Shown: one piece after another, positions 37,623 to 60,777 of the stretch
Layout of the letters: every line of letters starts with the position of its first letter
How positions within the stretch are numbered: the first letter of the stretch is position 1
Origin: a virus
Strand: one strand, 5' to 3'
IMG/VR virus record: IMGVR_UViG_3300021338_000004
Coordinates: 13,176-77,175 of that record
Length of the DNA: 64,000 nucleotides
Translations under genes and position numbers: made by a program
Notes under the pieces: model-generated
Told to the model about the DNA's origin: nothing
Seen by the model: only the letters and a program-made list of their open reading frames with translations
Databases searched by the model: none

Positions 37623-37656
37623 AATTCGTTATAAAACATATCTTTTATAACGAATT
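37623..37656. other. 34-bp lox-like recombination site AATTCGTTATAAA-ACATATCT-TTTATAACGAATT
   Basis: Perfect inverted arms around an asymmetric spacer, about 110 bp upstream of a tyrosine recombinase; a related repeat lies at 37709-37742. Confidence 0.75.
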
Positions 37657-37764
37657 CAGCAAAATCAGCACTTTCAGGCCAAGCCACTAGACAATATTTT
37701 TTTATTTAGTTATAAAATATTTAAATAATACGATTTTATAACCAATAAGGGGTTTGGCGCTGAC

Positions 37765-38379
37765 ATGGCAGGAAAACAAGCAAAGATCCTCTCTAAGCAG
37801 CAGCAGCGACTCGCGTTAGCGTATTTAGATGGCACACGATGGCCTGAACGCAACCGGGTCATGTTTTTGCTCAGCGTGAAGGCGGGATTGCGATCGAAAG
37901 AGATCGCGGCATTGTCAATGTGGAACGTTGCTGACTGGGAGTACCAGGTGCTCGATTTTATCGAAATCACCGACAAGGACTCCAAAGGAAAAAAAGGCGG
38001 CCGAAAAATTCCGCTGAACCAGCAGCTCAAAGAGGAGCTTCAGATACTGATCGATCAGGTCAGGACGCTTCCCAACGGGTCTGATCCAAGCATGCCGATT
38101 ATCCGAAGCGAAAGAGCTGGCCGCACAGAAAAAACTTCACCACAGGTAATAACCAACTGGTTTAAGCGTCTGTATGGGCCAGCAGGGTTAAATTTTGCCG
38201 GCTGCTCCTCGCATAGTGGCCGTCGTACGTTTGGCACCATGGCTGCTCGCAACATCTCAGCTGCAGGAGGCTCTTTAAAGGATGTGAAGTATTTAATGGG
38301 ACACAGCAGCATACAGACAACACAAACCTACATTGACGAAACCGAAGAAGCGAAACGAAACGTCGTTAATATGATTTAA
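37765..38379 (+). CDS. Tyrosine recombinase (catalytic domain only; resolvase-like)
   Basis: GLRSKE (R), SKGKK (K), SHSGRR (HxxR), MGH and TTQTY (Y). Confidence 0.93.
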   Translation: MAGKQAKILSKQQQRLALAYLDGTRWPERNRVMFLLSVKAGLRSKEIAALSMWNVADWEYQVLDFIEITDKDSKGKKGGRKIPLNQQLKEELQILIDQVRTLPNGSDPSMPIIRSERAGRTEKTSPQVITNWFKRLYGPAGLNFAGCSSHSGRRTFGTMAARNISAAGGSLKDVKYLMGHSSIQTTQTYIDETEEAKRNVVNMI

Positions 38380-50991: not shown

Positions 50992-51105
50992 TCCTTCTCA
51001 GATCAAATGAGGATACTTTTTTTATCGATGCATATCAAAAATGATTTACAAGAAGCGGGCAGCGTGGGTACCATGCATATCATCTTTGATATACAGGAGT
51101 TTAAA

Positions 51106-52206
51106 ATGGACCAGTACGACGACACCACAATTATCCCCAACTTAGGATCCCAGCTCGGCCTGCTGATTGATGACGGCCTGACAGAACCTCCCAGCGATTC
51201 CGGCCGGTATTTTTCCGCTCCTTCTATCGATGTCAACGAATACGAGCGGATAGTGCTCTGCATGTCCGGCGGTAAAGATTCGATTGCGTGCCTACTACAC
51301 CTCATTGATATCGGTGTCGATCTGAGATTGGTCGAGCTCTGGCATCACGACGTTGATGGGCGCGAAGGATCATCATTGATGGATTGGCCATTCATGGCCG
51401 ATTACAATCGAAAGCTGGCTGAAGCTTTCGGGCTGCCAATCTACTTTTCATGGCTGGAAGGCGGCTTTGAAGGCGAAATGCTAAAAGAAAACGCTTACAG
51501 CCGCCCTCACCACATAGAAACCCCGGACGGACTAATCACCCTGGAGCGCGACACTCGCCGGGCTAAGCCTGGCACTCGCTTGAAATTCCCCCAGGTGACC
51601 GCCAGCCTTCAGACAAGGTGGTGTAGCTCAGCGCTAAAAATCGATGTAGGTAGACGAGCCCTAAACAACCAGACCCGTTTCGACGGCAAGAAAGTTCTTT
51701 TCATCACGGGGGAGCGCCGAGAAGAAAGCCCCAACCGGGCAAAGTACAACCAACTTGAACCGCACGCATGTGACCGTCGTTCTGGGCGCAAAGCGCGTCA
51801 CGTTGATTCTTGGCGACCTGTTTTGAATTGGACAGAAGAGCAAGTATGGGATGCCCTGCAGCGACACGGCGTAATATCTCCTGTGCCGTACCGGCTTGGA
51901 TGGCCGCGATCATCCTGCATGAAATGCATCTTCAACGATGAGGTGATATGGGCAACACTGAGGCACTATTTCCCTGGGAGTCTCGACCTAATAGGCGCGT
52001 ATGAAACTCGTTTTGGGACAACTATAAATCGAAACCGGATTAACGTCATTGACTTATCTAAGAAGGCTAAACCGCTCGAAATTGATGACAGGGAAGCGCT
52101 CATGCAAGCCATGAAACGCGACTATTCGCTACCGATCATCCAGCAAGGCGGCACCTGGCTATTGCCACCAGGTGCTCACGCAAAAACCAACTGCGGCCCA
52201 TCGTAG
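51106..52206 (+). CDS. Phosphoadenosine phosphosulfate (PAPS) reductase-family protein
   Basis: MSGGKDS PP-loop, RWCSSALKI, GERREES.NRAKY, RSSCMKC; ATG 51106 with AGGAG RBS. Confidence 0.88.
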   Translation: MDQYDDTTIIPNLGSQLGLLIDDGLTEPPSDSGRYFSAPSIDVNEYERIVLCMSGGKDSIACLLHLIDIGVDLRLVELWHHDVDGREGSSLMDWPFMADYNRKLAEAFGLPIYFSWLEGGFEGEMLKENAYSRPHHIETPDGLITLERDTRRAKPGTRLKFPQVTASLQTRWCSSALKIDVGRRALNNQTRFDGKKVLFITGERREESPNRAKYNQLEPHACDRRSGRKARHVDSWRPVLNWTEEQVWDALQRHGVISPVPYRLGWPRSSCMKCIFNDEVIWATLRHYFPGSLDLIGAYETRFGTTINRNRINVIDLSKKAKPLEIDDREALMQAMKRDYSLPIIQQGGTWLLPPGAHAKTNCGPS

Positions 52207-52210
52207 CAAC

Positions 52211-52561
52211 TCAAACATGAAGCGCTACCTCTTTAGAGTGCATCCGCAACCAGCAGTTGGATTGCCCTTTGAATACATCCTTACAGCCACCAGGAAGGCC
52301 GTTGCCGCAAACTTCACATCGATCCTTAGCCCACGCCTTCTCCTGCTCCTGTAGGCGCTCATAATCGTTAAGGATTAATGTGACGATAAACTCATTGGCA
52401 TCATAAGGCGTGATGCCTCCACGCACATTACGGCAATAATCCATCTTCTTTCGCACAGATTCAGGAATCTCAAACTCAACAACCTTCATTCCCATTTCTG
52501 CCAATCGCTCTTTATCACGCCTGCGCTGAGCCTTCTTGCGATCTTTGTCACTGGTTGCCAT
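52211..52561 (-). CDS. Hypothetical phage protein with C-terminal Cys cluster
   Basis: DRKKAQRRRDK N-terminus; CEVCGNGLPGGC...CW. Confidence 0.7.
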   Translation of the reverse strand: MATSDKDRKKAQRRRDKERLAEMGMKVVEFEIPESVRKKMDYCRNVRGGITPYDANEFIVTLILNDYERLQEQEKAWAKDRCEVCGNGLPGGCKDVFKGQSNCWLRMHSKEVALHV

Positions 52562-52741
52562 ACGCGAGCCTATTTTTTCCCATGGGAAATTCTCCTTTCT
52601 TCCGGTCTACACAAAGCACCTGGCCTGCCAATACCCGCACTTTGCAGCTTTTCAAAACCCATCCTCAAATACTAATCGCCGACATATACGACTGACTGTC
52701 GTAAAATCTGGGAACAGCGACATTTGTCGTATATCTCAGTG

Positions 52742-52984
52742 TTATGTTCCACTCTTAACTTTATCGATCACCTCTATAAGCTCCGCGTCTTCAGGTACTC
52801 GCTTATCCAGCCAAACCGCCTTGCTTCGCTTAACTCCCTCCTTGTCAGTGTGCGATACAGTTACACGAACATATGGAATCCAGTTGTCGAAAACATAGCT
52901 AACAGCCTTTCTTGCCAGCCTAAATCCGACTACGGAAACAGCTAATATCCCCGCTACGTAAAAGAACAAATCAATAAGACTCAA
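52742..52984 (-). CDS. Cassette-encoded small membrane protein
   Basis: N-terminal TM; stop TAA inside ACATAAC. Confidence 0.65.
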   Translation of the reverse strand: MSLIDLFFYVAGILAVSVVGFRLARKAVSYVFDNWIPYVRVTVSHTDKEGVKRSKAVWLDKRVPEDAELIEVIDKVKSGT

Positions 52985-53050
52985 CCTGCCATCCTCTTAA
53001 TCCGTGAAACATAACAACAAGCGGCACGGGACAGGCCCGTGCGCTCCGGG

Positions 53051-53218
53051 TTATACCTCTCTGTCACGCACAGCTACTGCACCAGCAACCAGCACCTCAA
53101 ACAGACGCGGTTTGTTTTTGTGCCAGTTATTGAGAGTCTGAACAGACTCACCCGTGATACGAGATAGTTCAGCCAGGCTTTTCAGCCCGGCTGCTTTGCA
53201 AATTTCAGAGGGCTTCAT
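53051..53218 (-). CDS. Cassette-encoded small HTH protein (55 aa, MKPSEICKAAGLKSLAELSRITGESVQTLNNW...)
   Basis: Hand-translated; stop TAA inside GTATAAC. Confidence 0.75.
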   Translation of the reverse strand: MKPSEICKAAGLKSLAELSRITGESVQTLNNWHKNKPRLFEVLVAGAVAVRDREV

Positions 53219-53219
53219 C

Positions 53220-53420
53220 TTACCAACCCTGCTTTTTTAAGTGATCCAATGCGGCCTGATAGCTGCCAACCCATTTTTCAGCCCCGCAGTACGTATAATC
53301 TATGGCCCACTCGTCACAGGACTCAAAGGTTTTGATAATCGCTTCTTTGTGGTGCTGATCAGACCACACTTTGATTTTAATAATGCCTACGGGTGCGCTC
53401 ATGAATTCTGCGGTTATCAT
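53220..53420 (-). CDS. Cassette-encoded hypothetical protein upstream of the HTH gene
   Basis: ATG 53420 with GAGGGG RBS; coupled to the HTH gene. Confidence 0.6.
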   Translation of the reverse strand: MITAEFMSAPVGIIKIKVWSDQHHKEAIIKTFESCDEWAIDYTYCGAEKWVGSYQAALDHLKKQGW

Positions 53421-53471
53421 CGCTCTATCCCCTCTACGTATCGGCTGGGCCACTCCCTTACCGTTGATCCC

Positions 53472-53524
53472 ATAATACTAAAACATTTTTAGTATATCAA
53501 GCATTTTACTAAAATATTTTTAGT
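53472..53524 (-). promoter_or_regulatory. Sigma70 promoter TTGATA-N17-TATTAT with two palindromic operators ACTAAAA(C/T)ATTTTTAGT
   Basis: One operator fills the spacer, the second lies upstream of -35. Confidence 0.75.
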
Positions 53525-53587
53525 TTATTTACGCAGAGGTATAACAACCCACAGCAGCGGACAAGCCGCTGCGCTCCGGGTTATGAA

Positions 53588-53797
53588 TCACTCACCATGA
53601 AAATCAGGGCGGTAACTCGGTGGTAGCCCCAGCTCTTTTTCCCGCTGAAACTGTTTTAGATACCTCCTGTAGTTGCACAGGTGTCGCCACTCATCGCTAT
53701 ACAGATCGAAACCATGATCCAGCTCATCAAACATCTGCTGTTCTATGCGCTCCAAATCAGCGATAACTTTCTTGCAATATGTGATTCCGTAATTCAT
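53588..53797 (-). CDS. Cassette-encoded hypothetical protein
   Basis: ATG lies inside the GTTATGA core; stop lies just before TCATAAC. Confidence 0.6.
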   Translation of the reverse strand: MNYGITYCKKVIADLERIEQQMFDELDHGFDLYSDEWRHLCNYRRYLKQFQREKELGLPPSYRPDFHGE

Positions 53798-53874
53798 AAC
53801 AAAGCCATCAATCGCGGACGGTTCACCCGCGTCCTGTTTCCTGCTGTTACTAATGCCGCCGTTTATGGCGGGGG

Positions 53875-54138
53875 TTATACCGCGCTCTCATGCTGTCTGA
53901 TTTCACCAGGGTTACCTCTTAGCCAATACGCAAGCGCAAAGGATCCGCAGCGAATTAACGGCGTTAGAAACCCTTCATAGGTTGAATTGCACTCAGGGCA
54001 AACAGCCGTGCTACCGGCTTTATCCTGCCCAGCAAACTGTAGACGACAGTTAGTACAAACAAAATGCGGTATAACAACAGGCTCTTGGCTGGACCCGCTT
54101 AGCGCTTCCGGGTTTTCAGTTTCGTTCTGTCCGTTCAT
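53875..54138 (-). CDS. Cassette-encoded zinc-ribbon protein
   Basis: CTNC...CPEC; GGAGG RBS; stop inside GTATAAC. Confidence 0.6.
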   Translation of the reverse strand: MNGQNETENPEALSGSSQEPVVIPHFVCTNCRLQFAGQDKAGSTAVCPECNSTYEGFLTPLIRCGSFALAYWLRGNPGEIRQHESAV

Positions 54139-54228
54139 CTTTATCGCCTCCATCAAGTTAAATCGCGGGCCGCAAAGCCAGCCCCCCTGGGCGAGCGAGC
54201 CAGCCAGCATCACTAATTTAGCTTTGGG

Positions 54229-54444
54229 TTAGTGTGCTCGCCCTTGCCAGTTCAAACAGGGCGTGCCACCACTGTCGTTGACGATTTCATGACAAAATCC
54301 TTTCAGATACCTCCTGCCATGGCGCTGTTTGATTGTCCCTAGGACCATAATGGCCACGGCGGACACGGCGGCATCAAATTCATTTTCAGGCAGCTGTGTC
54401 AGAGCCTGCATCAAATCGTTTATATTCTCGATTTCTTTACTCAC
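54229..54444 (-). CDS. Hypothetical protein (cassette-like)
   Basis: GTG start with GGAG RBS; stop inside CACTAAC. Confidence 0.55.
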   Translation of the reverse strand: MSKEIENINDLMQALTQLPENEFDAAVSAVAIMVLGTIKQRHGRRYLKGFCHEIVNDSGGTPCLNWQGRAH

Positions 54445-54530
54445 TGATCTCTCCAATAATTCGCACATTAAAAACGGCTTAAATCTCGCTCCTCGCCGAA
54501 CAGCGCAAGCGCTGCCGCTTAAAGCAAGGG

Positions 54531-54770
54531 TTATGCGTCCCAATTCGCCAGATCCACATTAAAACCATACTTCTGCAGAAGCCTGCTGCTGAACTGGAAC
54601 TGAGAACCGTAGAATGTGTGAGTCGATAAATACTCATCAAATTCGCCGGTCTCTTTATTCACAATCCAACCGCAACCATCCCCTATTTTCAGGAAATGGG
54701 TTTCTGAGGCTTCCACGGCTGCAAGCTCTTCCCAATTATCGATAGGTAGACATTGCATAGATCTATTCAC
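54531..54770 (-). CDS. Hypothetical protein (cassette-like)
   Basis: Stop inside GCATAAC. Confidence 0.6.
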   Translation of the reverse strand: MNRSMQCLPIDNWEELAAVEASETHFLKIGDGCGWIVNKETGEFDEYLSTHTFYGSQFQFSSRLLQKYGFNVDLANWDA

Positions 54771-55057
54771 CCTTGCCCGTTCATCGGCAACTGCTTCGAC
54801 AACAATGCAGACACAACACGCTTAGCTTCCTCAACTGAGGGCAGGAAACCATCAGAGACATCAACAACAGACAACCCGCCTCTGCTAACTTCAAAGAACA
54901 CTGAGTCATCCGGGCTATCCAATACATGAACAGAGACCATGGGGCGACCGGCATGGTCCTGAAGGGTAACCACCAAGTTCCCACCATCTTCAACAAACGC
55001 ACGCTTTACTGCATGTTTTAAAGCATGGCTTTGCAGCAACATTTCTAATGCAGTCAT
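54767..55057 (-). CDS. Hypothetical protein
   Basis: Coupled by overlap; ATG within GTTATGA. Confidence 0.6.
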   Translation of the reverse strand: MTALEMLLQSHALKHAVKRAFVEDGGNLVVTLQDHAGRPMVSVHVLDSPDDSVFFEVSRGGLSVVDVSDGFLPSVEEAKRVVSALLSKQLPMNGQG

Positions 55058-55248
55058 AACCTATCCCACTCAAACGATAGACAATTACAAATACACCCCA
55101 GGGCGTGCCAACCTGCCGTCAGTGCTCTATATCCAGCGCCGCGCCCATTCAGTCGTTTAGCGTAACCAGCCGAAACCGGTATGGGCGTCATGGAAAGTGA
55201 GTCTTTACGGGTTCCTGTCCGGTTATCCGGTCTGTAGGGCGTATTCAT
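55054..55248 (-). CDS. Hypothetical protein
   Basis: 64 aa, fills an operon gap with ATGA overlap. Confidence 0.4.
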   Translation of the reverse strand: MNTPYRPDNRTGTRKDSLSMTPIPVSAGYAKRLNGRGAGYRALTAGWHALGCICNCLSFEWDRL

Positions 55249-55253
55249 AATGA

Positions 55254-55688
55254 TCAGTCTGAATCCTGAAAAAGCGGCTTATAGTGAGTAATACCTTCTT
55301 CATTCCATCCGCTTTTTTTGTGATAAGCCCGAACCTGGTAGCGTGAAGCCTTCTCTTTACGGCTTGGAATAAAGCACCAGAACATATCCCAATCTTCCTC
55401 ACCTAACAGGTCATCGCTTGGCGGCGTAGACGCCAGAGTCCAGCCTTCGCCAGGGTCCAGACCATGCAAAACATCAGCAAGGAATTCTATCTTTGAGATC
55501 TGCTCGGCTTCTTCAAATCCACAGCAAGATTTAAGCTCATCGTAGCGATCAGACACCCCCTGGGCCGCAATCGCCGCTTCCGTGCCTATAGCCGCACTGC
55601 GCTTATAGCTATCACTCGACAGGCCCAGCACTTCCAAAACGAACTTCGCACGTTCTATGCACATGTCAGAACTCCTCCTGATCATCAA
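55254..55688 (-). CDS. Hypothetical phage protein
   Basis: C-terminal GW..ASTPP...ITHYKPL (DUF551-like); start may be 55664. Confidence 0.6.
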   Translation of the reverse strand: MMIRRSSDMCIERAKFVLEVLGLSSDSYKRSAAIGTEAAIAAQGVSDRYDELKSCCGFEEAEQISKIEFLADVLHGLDPGEGWTLASTPPSDDLLGEEDWDMFWCFIPSRKEKASRYQVRAYHKKSGWNEEGITHYKPLFQDSD

Positions 55689-56529
55689 AAACTAGGATCC
55701 TGTCTGATTCAGGGTCTATTTTTGCTTGAATAACGCCATGGCTCGCCAATAGCTTGAGCGCTTTATCAACGCTTTGTCTGAAGGCGGGGAGGCTGTTGTC
55801 TTTTGAGCCACATAGGCTCTGAAGGCGGGCAACCGATATTGCATAGCGGTTGTCTTTTTTGTGGCTGGCAAAGTAGATCTGGAGCCACTTTGCAATGTGA
55901 CTATTGCCAAGCGCTTTTCGCGCTTCCCAATCAATGCGCGTAAACCCATGGCCGGCAAAGAAATCGATCAGCTCAACGGGCAACTGATACTCCCATGTAC
56001 GCGAAACTTTTCCGTTGTCGCCCATGTACTTCCAGCGATCCAGAAGACTGAAGGAGAATCGCGTGCATCTCACACGCATTTCACCTGCTTCCTTGTATTT
56101 TCTGCTTATAACCCCTTCCAGGGTCGCGGACTTCAAGCGCCGCATGCACTCCAGAAGTCTTTTGTAATAAAAACTGTTACTTCCCCATTCTAATATTTTC
56201 AGGAGATCGGACCGTTTCACGCTAACAGGGCGGTCTATAGATCGGTCGCGGGCAACATGAAGCAGAGCAAGATAGACATCTAAATCATCCTGGCGAAGCT
56301 CGATGCCCGTAAACGTCAGCCGAAGCGGATAAAGCCCCTCATCGATCCGTGCCAACTCCTGACATTGGTATTGCTGCCTAGCCGTCGTTGTACCGATCGA
56401 AAACAATGCGTAGCGCACCAGTTCATTAGGTACACAGCGGACACGTTTCGCCCAAGGACGATCCGTCAGGTGACGGGGTTGAAAACTATCTGCGCAACCG
56501 CTGTTAGCGGCCATTCCCATTGCGCTCAT
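55666..56529 (-). CDS. trfA: TrfA-family plasmid replication initiator
   Basis: PNELVRYALFS, FTGIELRQDDLDVY, IAKWLQIYFASH, LCGS...FRQSVDKAL resemble RK2 TrfA. Confidence 0.85.
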   Translation of the reverse strand: MSAMGMAANSGCADSFQPRHLTDRPWAKRVRCVPNELVRYALFSIGTTTARQQYQCQELARIDEGLYPLRLTFTGIELRQDDLDVYLALLHVARDRSIDRPVSVKRSDLLKILEWGSNSFYYKRLLECMRRLKSATLEGVISRKYKEAGEMRVRCTRFSFSLLDRWKYMGDNGKVSRTWEYQLPVELIDFFAGHGFTRIDWEARKALGNSHIAKWLQIYFASHKKDNRYAISVARLQSLCGSKDNSLPAFRQSVDKALKLLASHGVIQAKIDPESDRILVFDDQEEF

Positions 56530-58691: not shown

Positions 58692-58760
58692 ATAAAAACG
58701 GTTGCGCGATTGGCAGAGCGCAGCCGCTTCAAAAGCAACGATAAGGAAAGGATTAAGATC

Positions 58761-59897
58761 ATGCAGTTACCAGCGCGAAACCATCAGGATCAGCTGATCG
58801 CCATCTTTGCCCACCAGGGCATAACGATTCAGCATGCGTACCGCACAGAGCACGGTATCCCGATCCCAAACTGGCTAAATGAAGACGGCACAGAGTGCGT
58901 GCCCGGTATTTATTTGGGCGTTCCGAACAGCGAGTACCACGCGGCCCCGAACAGCTGGAGCACATCGCAGCTAAAGATCCTCATGCAGGAGACGCCTGCG
59001 CACTTTCACTCAAAATTCCTGGACCCTGAAGCCAAGCAGCTGCGCGAAATGAGCAAAGCTGAAAGCAGCGCAAAGAAAAAAACACTTGCGACCGGCGATC
59101 TAATTCACGCGCTGGCACTGGAACCTCACGCCGTCTACGAGCGCTATTACTGCGCACTAAACCCATCTGACTATCCTCAAGCCTTGCGCACCGACGAACA
59201 GATAAAGCGTGCACTGAAGGCAAAAGGCGAGCCGATGACAAAGTCAGGAGAGAAGAAAGAAGACCGCATCAAACGCCTCCTGGATGTCTGCCCTGATGCA
59301 CAGATCTGGGATGATCTGGTTGCAAATCTAGCCCAGGAAAACGAGGGGAAAGAAAGCGTTGCTTACGCAACATGGCACCTTGCACACCTCGCTATTCAAA
59401 AAACGATGGAGCGCAGCGAATCTGCATTTTTATTGGCAGAAGGCCTGCCAGAGCTATCAATCTTTGCGCGCGATCCCGCAACGGGCTTGATGTTTCGCAT
59501 TCGCCCGGACATCTTGCGAACCAACCTGTGGATGGTGGACGTTAAGAGCACTGCCAGTGCAAGCCCTGATCTTTGGTGCTCAACTGCAAGTCGCTTTGGA
59601 TACCACCTGCAGGAAGCTGTTTACTGCTCAGTCTTTGAGTGGGCCACCAGCATTCCCGCTTCAGGATTTGGCTTTGTTGCCATTGAGTGGGAAAACGCCC
59701 AGATATCCGAACCGTACGACTTCGACCTCGAAACAAAAGAGGATAGCTTGAAGATGTTCATGGACGCGAAAGGCGTTCTGGCAGATTGCTTGGAGAGCGG
59801 AGAGTGGCAAGGCTACACCCGCACTGGCGTCACAACGGTATCCGCGCGGCCATTTTCTCGCCGCTTGCGTTTCCAGGCGGAAGAAGGAGGAGAGTGA
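58761..59897 (+). CDS. recE: RecE/exonuclease VIII-like PD-(D/E)xK nuclease
   Basis: NSEYHA, GDLIHALALEP, RIRPD..VDVKST, YHLQEAVY; adjacent to recT. Confidence 0.85.
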   Translation: MQLPARNHQDQLIAIFAHQGITIQHAYRTEHGIPIPNWLNEDGTECVPGIYLGVPNSEYHAAPNSWSTSQLKILMQETPAHFHSKFLDPEAKQLREMSKAESSAKKKTLATGDLIHALALEPHAVYERYYCALNPSDYPQALRTDEQIKRALKAKGEPMTKSGEKKEDRIKRLLDVCPDAQIWDDLVANLAQENEGKESVAYATWHLAHLAIQKTMERSESAFLLAEGLPELSIFARDPATGLMFRIRPDILRTNLWMVDVKSTASASPDLWCSTASRFGYHLQEAVYCSVFEWATSIPASGFGFVAIEWENAQISEPYDFDLETKEDSLKMFMDAKGVLADCLESGEWQGYTRTGVTTVSARPFSRRLRFQAEEGGE

Positions 59898-59898
59898 C

Positions 59899-60777
59899 AT
59901 GCAATCCCCTTCAAACACAGTTTCTCAAGCACCGATCGACCGGTGCCTTGAGGCACTAAAGAAAGCGCGTGAGAATTTTGCCCGAATTGCGGACGCGCAC
60001 AAGCGCGTCCTCTTTGCAGAAGAGGCAGAATTCGCAAGATCTATCCTGCTTAGAAGCGTCCCCGTTCGCGGGGATCGAAGCGCGTTCAAGCTTTGCTTTT
60101 GCGACCCGGACTCGGTTTACCACGCAATACTTCAGGTGGCAAAAATCGGGGTTACGCTCAACCCCACCGAAGGCCTCGCCTACTTGGTGCCTCGCAAAAA
60201 TCAGCAGCGCGGCGGCATACTGGAGTGTCATTTAGAAATCAGCTACAAGGGCATGATTCAGTTAGCCATTGAATGCGGAACCATCACCCATGTTGTTAGC
60301 GAACAGGTTTTCCAGGAAGACCTGGACAGTGGTGCTTTCCAATATCTCGGCCCCGCTGCAGAACCCATCGTAAAGACCAACCCCTTTTCCTCCAGCAAAA
60401 GCAACACTTCTTCTGTCGGCGTTTGGTGTACCGCTTTCCTGAAATCTGGCGGCGTCATGACGACATACATGCGCCGCGATGAGCTGGATACCGTAAAGCT
60501 CATGAGTTTCAACAAAGATGGGTGGAACAAGTTCTCTTCCGAGTACGAGAAGAAAACCTGTATTCGACGCGCCTTCAAACTATGGCCAAAGCCTCGAAAT
60601 GATGACCGCTTAGCCGCGGCAATTGCGTACATGAACGAAACTGAATCACCGCAATTTTCCGAGCAGCCCCCAGCGCCCCAGCCTCACACAATCGCATCCA
60701 CACAAAACCAAGGCGGCATGGCTGCCATGATTGCTGCCGGCACGCAAGGACGAAGCCATGTCAACCAACACAGATAG
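59899..60777 (+). CDS. recT: RecT-family ssDNA annealing recombinase
   Basis: IGVTLNP...AYLVPR, ISYKGMIQLA, W......EKKTCIRRAFKLWP. Confidence 0.92.
   Translation: MQSPSNTVSQAPIDRCLEALKKARENFARIADAHKRVLFAEEAEFARSILLRSVPVRGDRSAFKLCFCDPDSVYHAILQVAKIGVTLNPTEGLAYLVPRKNQQRGGILECHLEISYKGMIQLAIECGTITHVVSEQVFQEDLDSGAFQYLGPAAEPIVKTNPFSSSKSNTSSVGVWCTAFLKSGGVMTTYMRRDELDTVKLMSFNKDGWNKFSSEYEKKTCIRRAFKLWPKPRNDDRLAAAIAYMNETESPQFSEQPPAPQPHTIASTQNQGGMAAMIAAGTQGRSHVNQHR

Follow-up and report, generated by a model that had tools for sequence, protein, structure and literature searches.

Two 48-nt hairpins of a marine phage-plasmid as probable miniature attC-type sites of a mirrored, integrase-less cassette cluster

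Two sister hairpins of 48 nt lie 530 bp apart among small minus-strand genes of the viral genome held as IMG/VR record IMGVR_UViG_3300021338_000004. The window analyzed here, a stretch of 64,000 nucleotides, comprises bases 13176-77175 of this 77,175-bp record, and all site coordinates are window coordinates. We consider it probable that both hairpins belong, as attC-type sites of miniature size, to a mirrored attC cluster without an integrase (CALIN) carried by a phage-plasmid. The stretch from about 52.7 to 54.5 kb is best read as split into small gene cassettes by these two sites, an 87-nt site and at least two decayed copies. The sites are as follows:

53009-53056, minus: site 1, candidate mini attC with a GTATAAC box, 4-nt spacer, 10-bp stem, 5-nt loop and GTTATGT box
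53539-53586, minus: site 2, candidate mini attC and sister of site 1, with 5' box TCATAAC and 3' box GTTATAC
53794-53880, minus: attC-like site of ordinary size (87 nt), matched end to end by both models built from outside sites, with a TTGA bulge motif
54069-54118, minus: relic site 3, recognized by alignment, with the leader AACCCGGA(A)GCGC and the trailer TGTTGTTATAC kept and the stem lost
54465-54536, minus: decayed site after a 79-amino-acid (aa) gene, with a 5' box GCATAAC that holds the stop codon and a 3' box degraded to TTTTTAATG
52731-52745, minus: half site at the array end, ATAACACTGAGATA, whose TAA is the stop codon of an 80-aa gene, fused to the backbone

The initial annotation had described two 48-bp sister hairpins at 53009-53586, and their positions, kinship and folding were confirmed. 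Read along the minus strand, site 1 (53056 to 53009) is GTATAAC-CCGGAGC-GCACGGG-CCTGT-CCCGTGC-CGCTTGTT-GTTATGT and site 2 (53586 to 53539) is TCATAAC-CCGGAGC-GCAGCGG-CTTGT-CCGCTGC-TGTGGGTT-GTTATAC. A repeat search recovers them as a 44-nt direct repeat of 80% identity (53011-53054 and 53541-53584, 530 bp apart). Their leaders are identical over 15 nt; the 14-nt form ATAACCCGGAGCGC is present at these two places and nowhere else in the window, and still only twice in the 77,175 bp of the genome when one mismatch is allowed. Folded as single-stranded DNA, sites 1 and 2 reach -12.4 and -12.8 kcal/mol, with z scores of -3.5 and -4.1 against dinucleotide shuffles; the opposite strand of both folds about equally well. 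Their stems differ as GCACGGG/CCCGTGC versus GCAGCGG/CCGCTGC, so that two adjacent pairs are altered on both sides, a change not seen in slid-partner controls.

Both sites have the R stem, unpaired central spacer, L stem and terminal loop that attC requires. In the minimum free energy (MFE) fold of site 1, an R stem of 5 bp is followed by a 4+4-nt spacer and an L stem of 10 bp closed by a loop of 5 nt; site 2 adopts a fold of this type at -9.9 kcal/mol, as compared with its MFE of -12.8. One base only, C in site 1 and T in site 2, is bulged out of the 3' arm when the coding strand is folded; this is the arm of the bottom-strand extrahelical bases in attC (PMC5027507). When the terminal boxes are compared with the attC consensus 5'-RYYYAAC...GTTRRRY-3', the AAC and GTT triplets are invariant in both sites and position 3 is A, not Y, a deviation common to phage sites recombined by the integrase IntI1 and to Vibrio sites.

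Membership in the attC family was assessed with three covariance models: an own-site model from sites 1 and 2 themselves, a seven-site model from outside sites (three of phage TJE1 and four of Pseudoalteromonas phage H101, aligned in bottom-strand orientation), and a 20-site model, also from outside sites, 13 of which come from a Vibrio integron. Searched against both strands of the 64 kb with filters off, the seven-site model matched site 1 best, at 27.0 bits (E 9e-4); next in the window came the 87-nt site with 22.3 bits (E 0.012) and, third, site 2 with 13.9 bits (E 1.3). Each of these is an end-to-end match on the minus strand, while the plus strand of site 1 scores 10.3 bits only. With the 20-site model, too, the top places go to site 1 with 20.5 bits and the 87-nt site with 20.3 bits, both end to end. 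As a control, the seven-site model found no match at E<=10 in 1.05 Mb of unrelated loci, and none in 84 kb searched with filters off. The 87-nt site lies within the length range of described attC and has an attC-type fold within 2 kcal/mol of its MFE; its 5' box, GTATAAC, holds the TAA stop of a zinc-ribbon gene and its 3' box, GTTATGA, the ATG start of a 69-aa gene. The three sites are co-oriented within 872 bp of one strand, with no intI nearby, which is the arrangement of a CALIN. The best non-self match of the own-site model is relic site 3 (54064-54123; 12.7 bits, E 0.63), and its second, weaker, is 54853-54925; both fall in the same 2-kb array and on the same strand. Relic site 3 is itself unstructured (z +0.59), and its sequence now forms codons 7-23 of the zinc-ribbon open reading frame (ORF). 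Neither this relic nor the 87-nt site was among the sites that the initial annotation had named.

The cassettes and genes delimited by these sites are listed below:

52742-53050, minus: cassette Z, site 1 and the 80-aa gene (52742-52984)
53051-53580, minus: cassette A (530 bp), site 2, its own promoter, two operators, a 77/66-aa gene and a 55-aa helix-turn-helix (HTH) gene
53500-53472, minus: sigma-70-like promoter of cassette A
53477-53494 and 53507-53524: two 18-bp palindromic operators of cassette A
53220-53453, minus: 77/66-aa gene of cassette A
53051-53218, minus: 55-aa HTH gene of cassette A, with weak matches to HTH families
53581-53874, minus: cassette B, the 87-nt site and the 69-aa gene (53588-53797)
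53875-54138, minus: zinc-ribbon gene, 87 aa from the ATG at 54138, with an N-terminus that runs through relic site 3
54229-55057, minus: upstream array genes; the 71/104-aa gene stops in ACTAAC, the 79-aa gene stops in GCATAAC, and the 96-aa gene has its ATG in GGTTATG

In the array, stop codons are embedded in (A)TAAC at six successive gene ends, and several genes start in or right behind a GTTAT(G) motif. With a greedy gene call, ATAAC-embedded stops are found in 3 of 6 array genes and in none of 90 elsewhere (Fisher p = 1.4e-4). The boxes would thereby provide both stop codons (TAA in ATAAC) and start codons (ATG in GTTATG). Downstream of relic site 3, the zinc-ribbon gene lacks a start codon, and its first 23 codons run from an upstream Shine-Dalgarno sequence and ATG through the decayed site; it appears that a former recombination site has become part of its coding sequence (54069-54138).

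Further evidence comes from rearranged relatives in other samples. Logan contigs of four sequencing runs were compared with 51900-55300: two from seawater, X9 (an animal oral metagenome) and X12 ('organism A'). Both seawater runs contain the same phage; X9 and X12, which belong to different studies, contain related pieces in other arrangements. One X9 contig is 99% identical to 52741-53056, a segment comprising site 1 and the 80-aa gene, and continues into unlike sequence of 195 bases on one side and 28 on the other. An X12 contig matches 52731-53054 at 95% and has unlike flanks, with a different upstream gene that ends ...GTAA|ATAAC. In X12, moreover, 14 nt of the half site 52731-52745 run on into a complete mini site of about 43 nt ending in GTTATG, and the site copy is a mosaic of a site-1 stem and a site-2 trailer (changes at 53019-53021). 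Site-2-like copies stand alone in three further contigs (53540-53585, 1-5 mismatches). In X9, a homologue of the 79-aa gene, whose start lies inside a GTTATG box, is joined directly to array-end sequence (52740 to 54530), the two places sharing only CATAAC, and the backbone stretch 52718-52740 is joined to other cassettes. A loose X9 contig end at 54485 reads ...CCGTTGTTAT, with a complete 3' box at the decayed site after the 79-aa gene, and the X9 relative retains ...GTTGTTAT where the site of the present phage has lost its 3' box. Loose contig ends hold further complete ATAAC...GTTAT sites.

Homology to these relatives breaks exactly at the ATAAC/GTTAT boxes, and the unit that travels together is a site and the gene downstream of it, as predicted for a mirrored cassette with its crossover at ATAA|C of the 5' box. 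The contigs of the relatives are good but not conclusive indications that the sites are cassette boundaries. With these break points, the attC reading proposed in the initial annotation is supported from four sides, the others being the boxes, the fold, and the outside-site models for site 1 and the 87-nt site. In the mechanism that we envisage, a host-encoded integron integrase would bind the folded bottom strand, with strand exchange at the AAC triplet of this 5' box (ATAA|C); the mobile unit would then be the site with its downstream gene. The messenger RNA (mRNA) would carry the bottom-strand hairpin followed by a U-rich UUGUUAU box, so that the sites probably also work as weak intrinsic terminators, or insulate one cassette from the next.

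The array is called mirrored on account of its orientation, a feature not noted in the initial annotation. In the complete integron of Vibrio phage p16, with intIA on the minus strand and the cassette ORFs on the plus strand, the seven-site model finds 16 attC, all on the minus strand and hence antisense to the ORFs, and the attC of phage TJE1 are antisense as well. In the present window and in H101, by contrast, the matches are on the gene strand, and the strand predicted to fold and recombine is thus the coding strand. Seen from the plus strand, the units are ordinary cassettes (TTAT..., ORF, attC, ...G) with an inverted ORF. The annotated genes of H101 (NC_029094, 74000-78500) are on the same strand as the attC bottom strands; the searched text of PMC9892861 does not discuss gene orientation relative to the attC strand. 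The minus-strand array ORFs are real, given the HTH match of the 55-aa protein, the zinc-ribbon motif of the 87-aa protein, and the pattern of substitution: 12 of the 20 listed differences between the phage and its relatives are third-position and synonymous in the minus-strand frames, and the same differences would give overlapping plus-strand ORFs two stop codons.

Several observations weigh against this interpretation. Described attC are 57-141 bp long, with spacers of 5-6 nt, and their bottom strand has two or three extrahelical bases, located on the R''/L'' arm (PMC5027507); the lower limit of about 57 bp quoted in the initial annotation is therefore correct, and sites 1 and 2, at 48 nt, fall below it. 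They also have a spacer of 4 nt and one bulged base each. The 20-site model does not report site 2, and the seven-site model has a chance match of 14.1 bits elsewhere in this genome, which puts site 2 taken alone (13.9 bits) at noise level; it is counted as a member because it is 80% identical to site 1 and has near-identical copies in other surroundings in X9 and X12. The paired stem changes, which had been taken as a sign of selection on structure, do affect two pairs on both sides, but are equalled by 122 of 500 shuffles, and covariation is not significant with two sequences; the argument from compensatory change is suggestive, not proof. The genome encodes no integron integrase. The evidence for rearrangement comes from short, low-depth Logan contigs of two runs, in which the sides of the joints are 20-28 nt. 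Finally, IMG/VR, GTDB (one genome per species) and 840 kb around related PAPS-reductase genes yielded no copy of this site family. The pattern leader...GTTAT had one chance match in IMG/VR, on a GC-rich contig, and the stem pattern none there; the stem pattern had 27 chance matches in GTDB, all without boxes. Among 70 metagenome loci found through the neighboring PAPS-reductase gene (at most 80% identity), synteny was limited to one neighboring gene and no member of the site family was present.

Several other readings of the same data have to be weighed. In a simple pattern scan of 50-58 kb, sites 1 and 2 come out as the most terminator-like sequences; both are on the gene strand and combine a GC-rich stem of 7-9 pairs with an 8-nt tail that contains at least 5 T. 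It could be argued that they are Rho-independent terminators of two small transcription units (a 'moron' with promoter and terminator of its own), alike by duplication and with no role in recombination. Each hairpin begins at or 2 nt after a coding-strand stop codon (the TAA in the site 1 box GTATAAC is the stop of the 55-aa HTH gene, and site 2 starts 2 nt past the TGA of the 69-aa gene), a promoter-like site and operators follow site 2, and compensatory stem changes are expected of any functional hairpin. We consider this decidedly unlikely. A terminator has no need of conserved ATAAC/GTTAT ends paired across an unpaired spacer, the T tracts are weak and interrupted by G, and the 87-nt neighbor has the same ends but not the hairpin, and no T tail. 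Models from IntI1-recombined or real-integron attC match the sites end to end, the homology to relatives stops precisely at the boxes, and the sites occur alone in other contexts. The initial annotation had treated a terminator function as a refutation of the attC reading; the terminator pattern is indeed present on the mRNA strand, but the two roles are compatible. No RNA run is among the public runs listed as carrying the region.

It is quite unlikely, though less so than pure termination, that the sites are conserved linkers at which general or phage homologous recombination (RecT plus exonuclease, 58.7-60.8 kb) shuffles modules among co-infecting relatives, without a site-specific enzyme, in the manner of promoter-early stem-loop (PeSL) cassettes. 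PeSL cassettes of T4-type phages and the morons of lambdoid phages are small accessory genes of early regions bounded by a stem-loop or terminator; they are not known to have AAC/GTT boxes or an attC-type fold, and are thought to be shuffled by homologous or illegitimate recombination. Cassette A resembles them in that its promoter comes after the hairpin. Such exchange would account for the near-identical 46-48-nt copies beside different genes in the relatives and for the mosaic copy in X12, breaks at the outer edges of a shared repeat would be expected under it too, and the phage encodes RecT- and exonuclease-like proteins. However, the X9 junction between the 79-aa gene and the array end shares 6 nt (CATAAC), which is too short for homologous exchange and fits a crossover at the AAC box; dissimilar sites (48, about 70 and 87 nt) have kept the boxes only; and the attC model matches and their strand asymmetry are left without explanation. 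Less likely than any other reading, and barely credible to us, is one in which the hairpins are small mobile palindromic repeats, like repetitive extragenic palindromes (REP) or miniature inverted-repeat transposable elements (MITE), that insert themselves after genes and are not cassette borders. The lone site-2-like copies are in three unrelated short contigs, and the sites, like dispersed repeats, are points at which assemblies break. Yet the sites have neither a target-site duplication nor a GTAG motif of REP type, the 77 kb contain no more than two intact copies, which belong to a single co-oriented array, and no RAYT/IS200-type gene was noted among the ORFs of 44-64 kb, for which no profile search was made. 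Gene and site travel together, and the stop and start codons in the boxes would also go unexplained.

The remaining alternatives concern the enzyme. The sole tyrosine recombinase of the genome lies 15 kb from the array:

37765-38379: 204-aa tyrosine recombinase, catalytic domain only

It would be very improbable as the enzyme acting on the hairpins. Besides being the only candidate of its kind, it has a presumed palindromic site (37626-37655, with GTTATAAAA half sites) that shares GTTATA with the 3' boxes, but this motif has 6 nt, chance would produce such a hexamer about 38 times in 77 kb, and we judge it a coincidence. Neither outside-site model gives a match at 37.6 kb, and the site is a classical double-stranded 13-6-13 palindrome beside the gene, like a resolution or cyclization site. 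The palindrome is perfect, and there is another pair of half sites at 37708-37745. On the IntI model the protein scores 25.6 bits against a cut-off of 265. Recombinase and palindrome are probably a small Cre/lox-like resolution or cyclization system, not an integron integrase. H101 and TJE1 have such attC arrays but entirely lack a tyrosine recombinase; an enzyme of this kind is evidently dispensable for attC arrays of phages, and on the preferred reading of the hairpins as attC-type sites the integrase would have to come from the host. The array differs from a complete integron in having no IntI, in carrying its ORFs on the bottom-strand side and in ending in a half site fused to the backbone. 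A bolder proposal, unlikely but worth stating, is that phages run their own mirrored integron, in which cassettes are encoded on the recombining bottom strand, ORFs start in GTTATG and stop in ATAAC and so exactly fill the cassettes, mini attC double as terminators, and insertion at a fixed backbone junction (52741, variable among relatives) is carried out not by a neighboring IntI but by a host integrase in trans or by a phage recombinase. If true, it would be a general, so far undescribed way of shuffling small early genes.

The closest known counterparts of the present array, read as a CALIN, are in phages. Integrase-less attC clusters of phages were described in 2023, and five of their sites were recombined by IntI1 (Qi et al., 2023, Front Microbiol, PMC9892861). 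The primers in its Table S3 indicate phage attC of about 50-60 nt, with boxes such as GTATAAC, GCATAAC and ATATAAC...GTTATAC, GTTATAT and GTTATCC. The arrays of TJE1 and H101 and the present one have in common the lack of an integrase, small co-oriented ORFs between imperfect hairpins, xxATAAC...GTTATxx boxes, a short loop and apparently one bulged base, although TJE1_attC1 itself ends in GTTGGAT; H101 also shares the position of its genes on the bottom-strand side. TJE1 and H101 are virulent, whereas the present genome is a temperate-looking phage-plasmid with a TrfA-type replicon and has stop and start codons inside the boxes. IntI1 recombination was shown for sites of TJE1 and H101 and is a prediction for those described here.

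The initial annotation had suggested that the hairpins may form a distinct minimal site class, a claim that is not upheld. According to PMC9892861, TJE1_attC1 is about 50 nt long, has GTATAAC and TTGTT-type box motifs and apparently one bulged base, and is recombined by IntI1 about as well as attC-aadA7; sites of 48 nt would thus be a marginal extension and not a new class. Sites 1 and 2 differ from TJE1_attC1 in being slightly shorter, in their 4-nt spacer and in a 7-bp core stem rich in GC. Having one bulged base only, they are at or below the size of the smallest working attC and may help to define the minimal substrate.

The attC of Vibrio chromosomal integrons (VCR-like; phage Va_90-11-286_p16, MK672802) have the same bottom-strand pattern xxATAAC...CTTGTTATxx and the same order of R stem, spacer and L stem, and are detected by the same model; Vibrio integrons, too, contain cassettes with their own promoter, of toxin-antitoxin type. 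Their sites differ in being 97-129 nt long, antisense to the ORFs and beside intIA, as opposed to two 48-nt sites on the coding strand with no intI here. Classical attC of mobile integrons such as attC-aadA7 share the AAC/GTT triplets and are recombined as a folded single strand with a loop (variable terminal structure, VTS) of down to 3 nt (Nivina et al., 2016, PMC5027507). In these, however, the cassette ORF is on the top strand and is expressed from the Pc promoter beside attI/intI. Genes on the bottom-strand side reverse this logic of expression and place a U-rich box behind each hairpin in the mRNA. If the mirrored layout is general, it would explain how early regions of phages gather and swap many tiny accessory genes. 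Arrays of attC in phages being already known, the present genome is one more phage, and a phage-plasmid, on a short list; the same cassette and mini site in other contexts in unrelated samples provide in-silico evidence of cassette exchange in nature.

In Pfam, PHROGs, NCBIfam and PADLOC, the array proteins gave only the weak HTH match of the 55-aa protein and the zinc ribbon, and no defense families; the 77/66-aa protein has no family match in these or in the protein atlas. A homologue search with the 77-aa protein returned only its own cluster, present on 12 contigs. The 80-aa protein had no tblastn match in plasmids or phages and none in the scan of GTDB genomes. Cassette A (53051-53538) is a self-contained two-gene unit, with a layout like that of toxin-antitoxin cassettes of chromosomal integrons. 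From site 1 to site 2, and again from site 2 to relic site 3, the 3' boxes (53009, 53539 and 54069) are exactly 530 bp apart; no similarity was found outside the sites that would point to an old tandem duplication of 530-bp units. The intergenic stretches that remain, one of about 70 nt behind the 79-aa gene and another behind the 104-aa gene, have no significant structure.

The array is located in the early/plasmid region of a 77-kb marine phage-plasmid, which is temperate-looking and has a TrfA-type replicon and head genes of one type. The 77,175-bp record has direct terminal repeats, and eight seawater metagenome runs carry the DNA of the region almost unchanged. DNA searches with 52600-54200 for near and distant matches in GenBank phages, complete E. 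coli genomes and PLSDB plasmids gave none; scans of IMG/VR proteins with the 116-aa, 77-aa, TrfA-like and 80-aa proteins found no relatives, and an Rfam search found nothing relevant. The run of small minus-strand ORFs that surrounds both hairpins is flanked by:

55666-56529: TrfA-like gene, on one side
51007-52561: 116-aa regulator and PAPS-reductase-like gene, on the other side

At the array end (52660-52745), the half site ATAACACTGAGATA is joined to a structured stretch (z -2.96) with three GTCGTATA-type repeats; this junction may act as an attI-like insertion point, or may hold operators of the 116-aa regulator. The exonuclease-like and RecT-like genes near the array (58710-60777) could aid exchange at short homologies such as the 48-nt sites. 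Between the convergent PAPS-reductase-like and 116-aa regulator genes is a further hairpin (52201-52230), which scores 13.1 bits with the 20-site model and is probably a bidirectional terminator rather than an attC.

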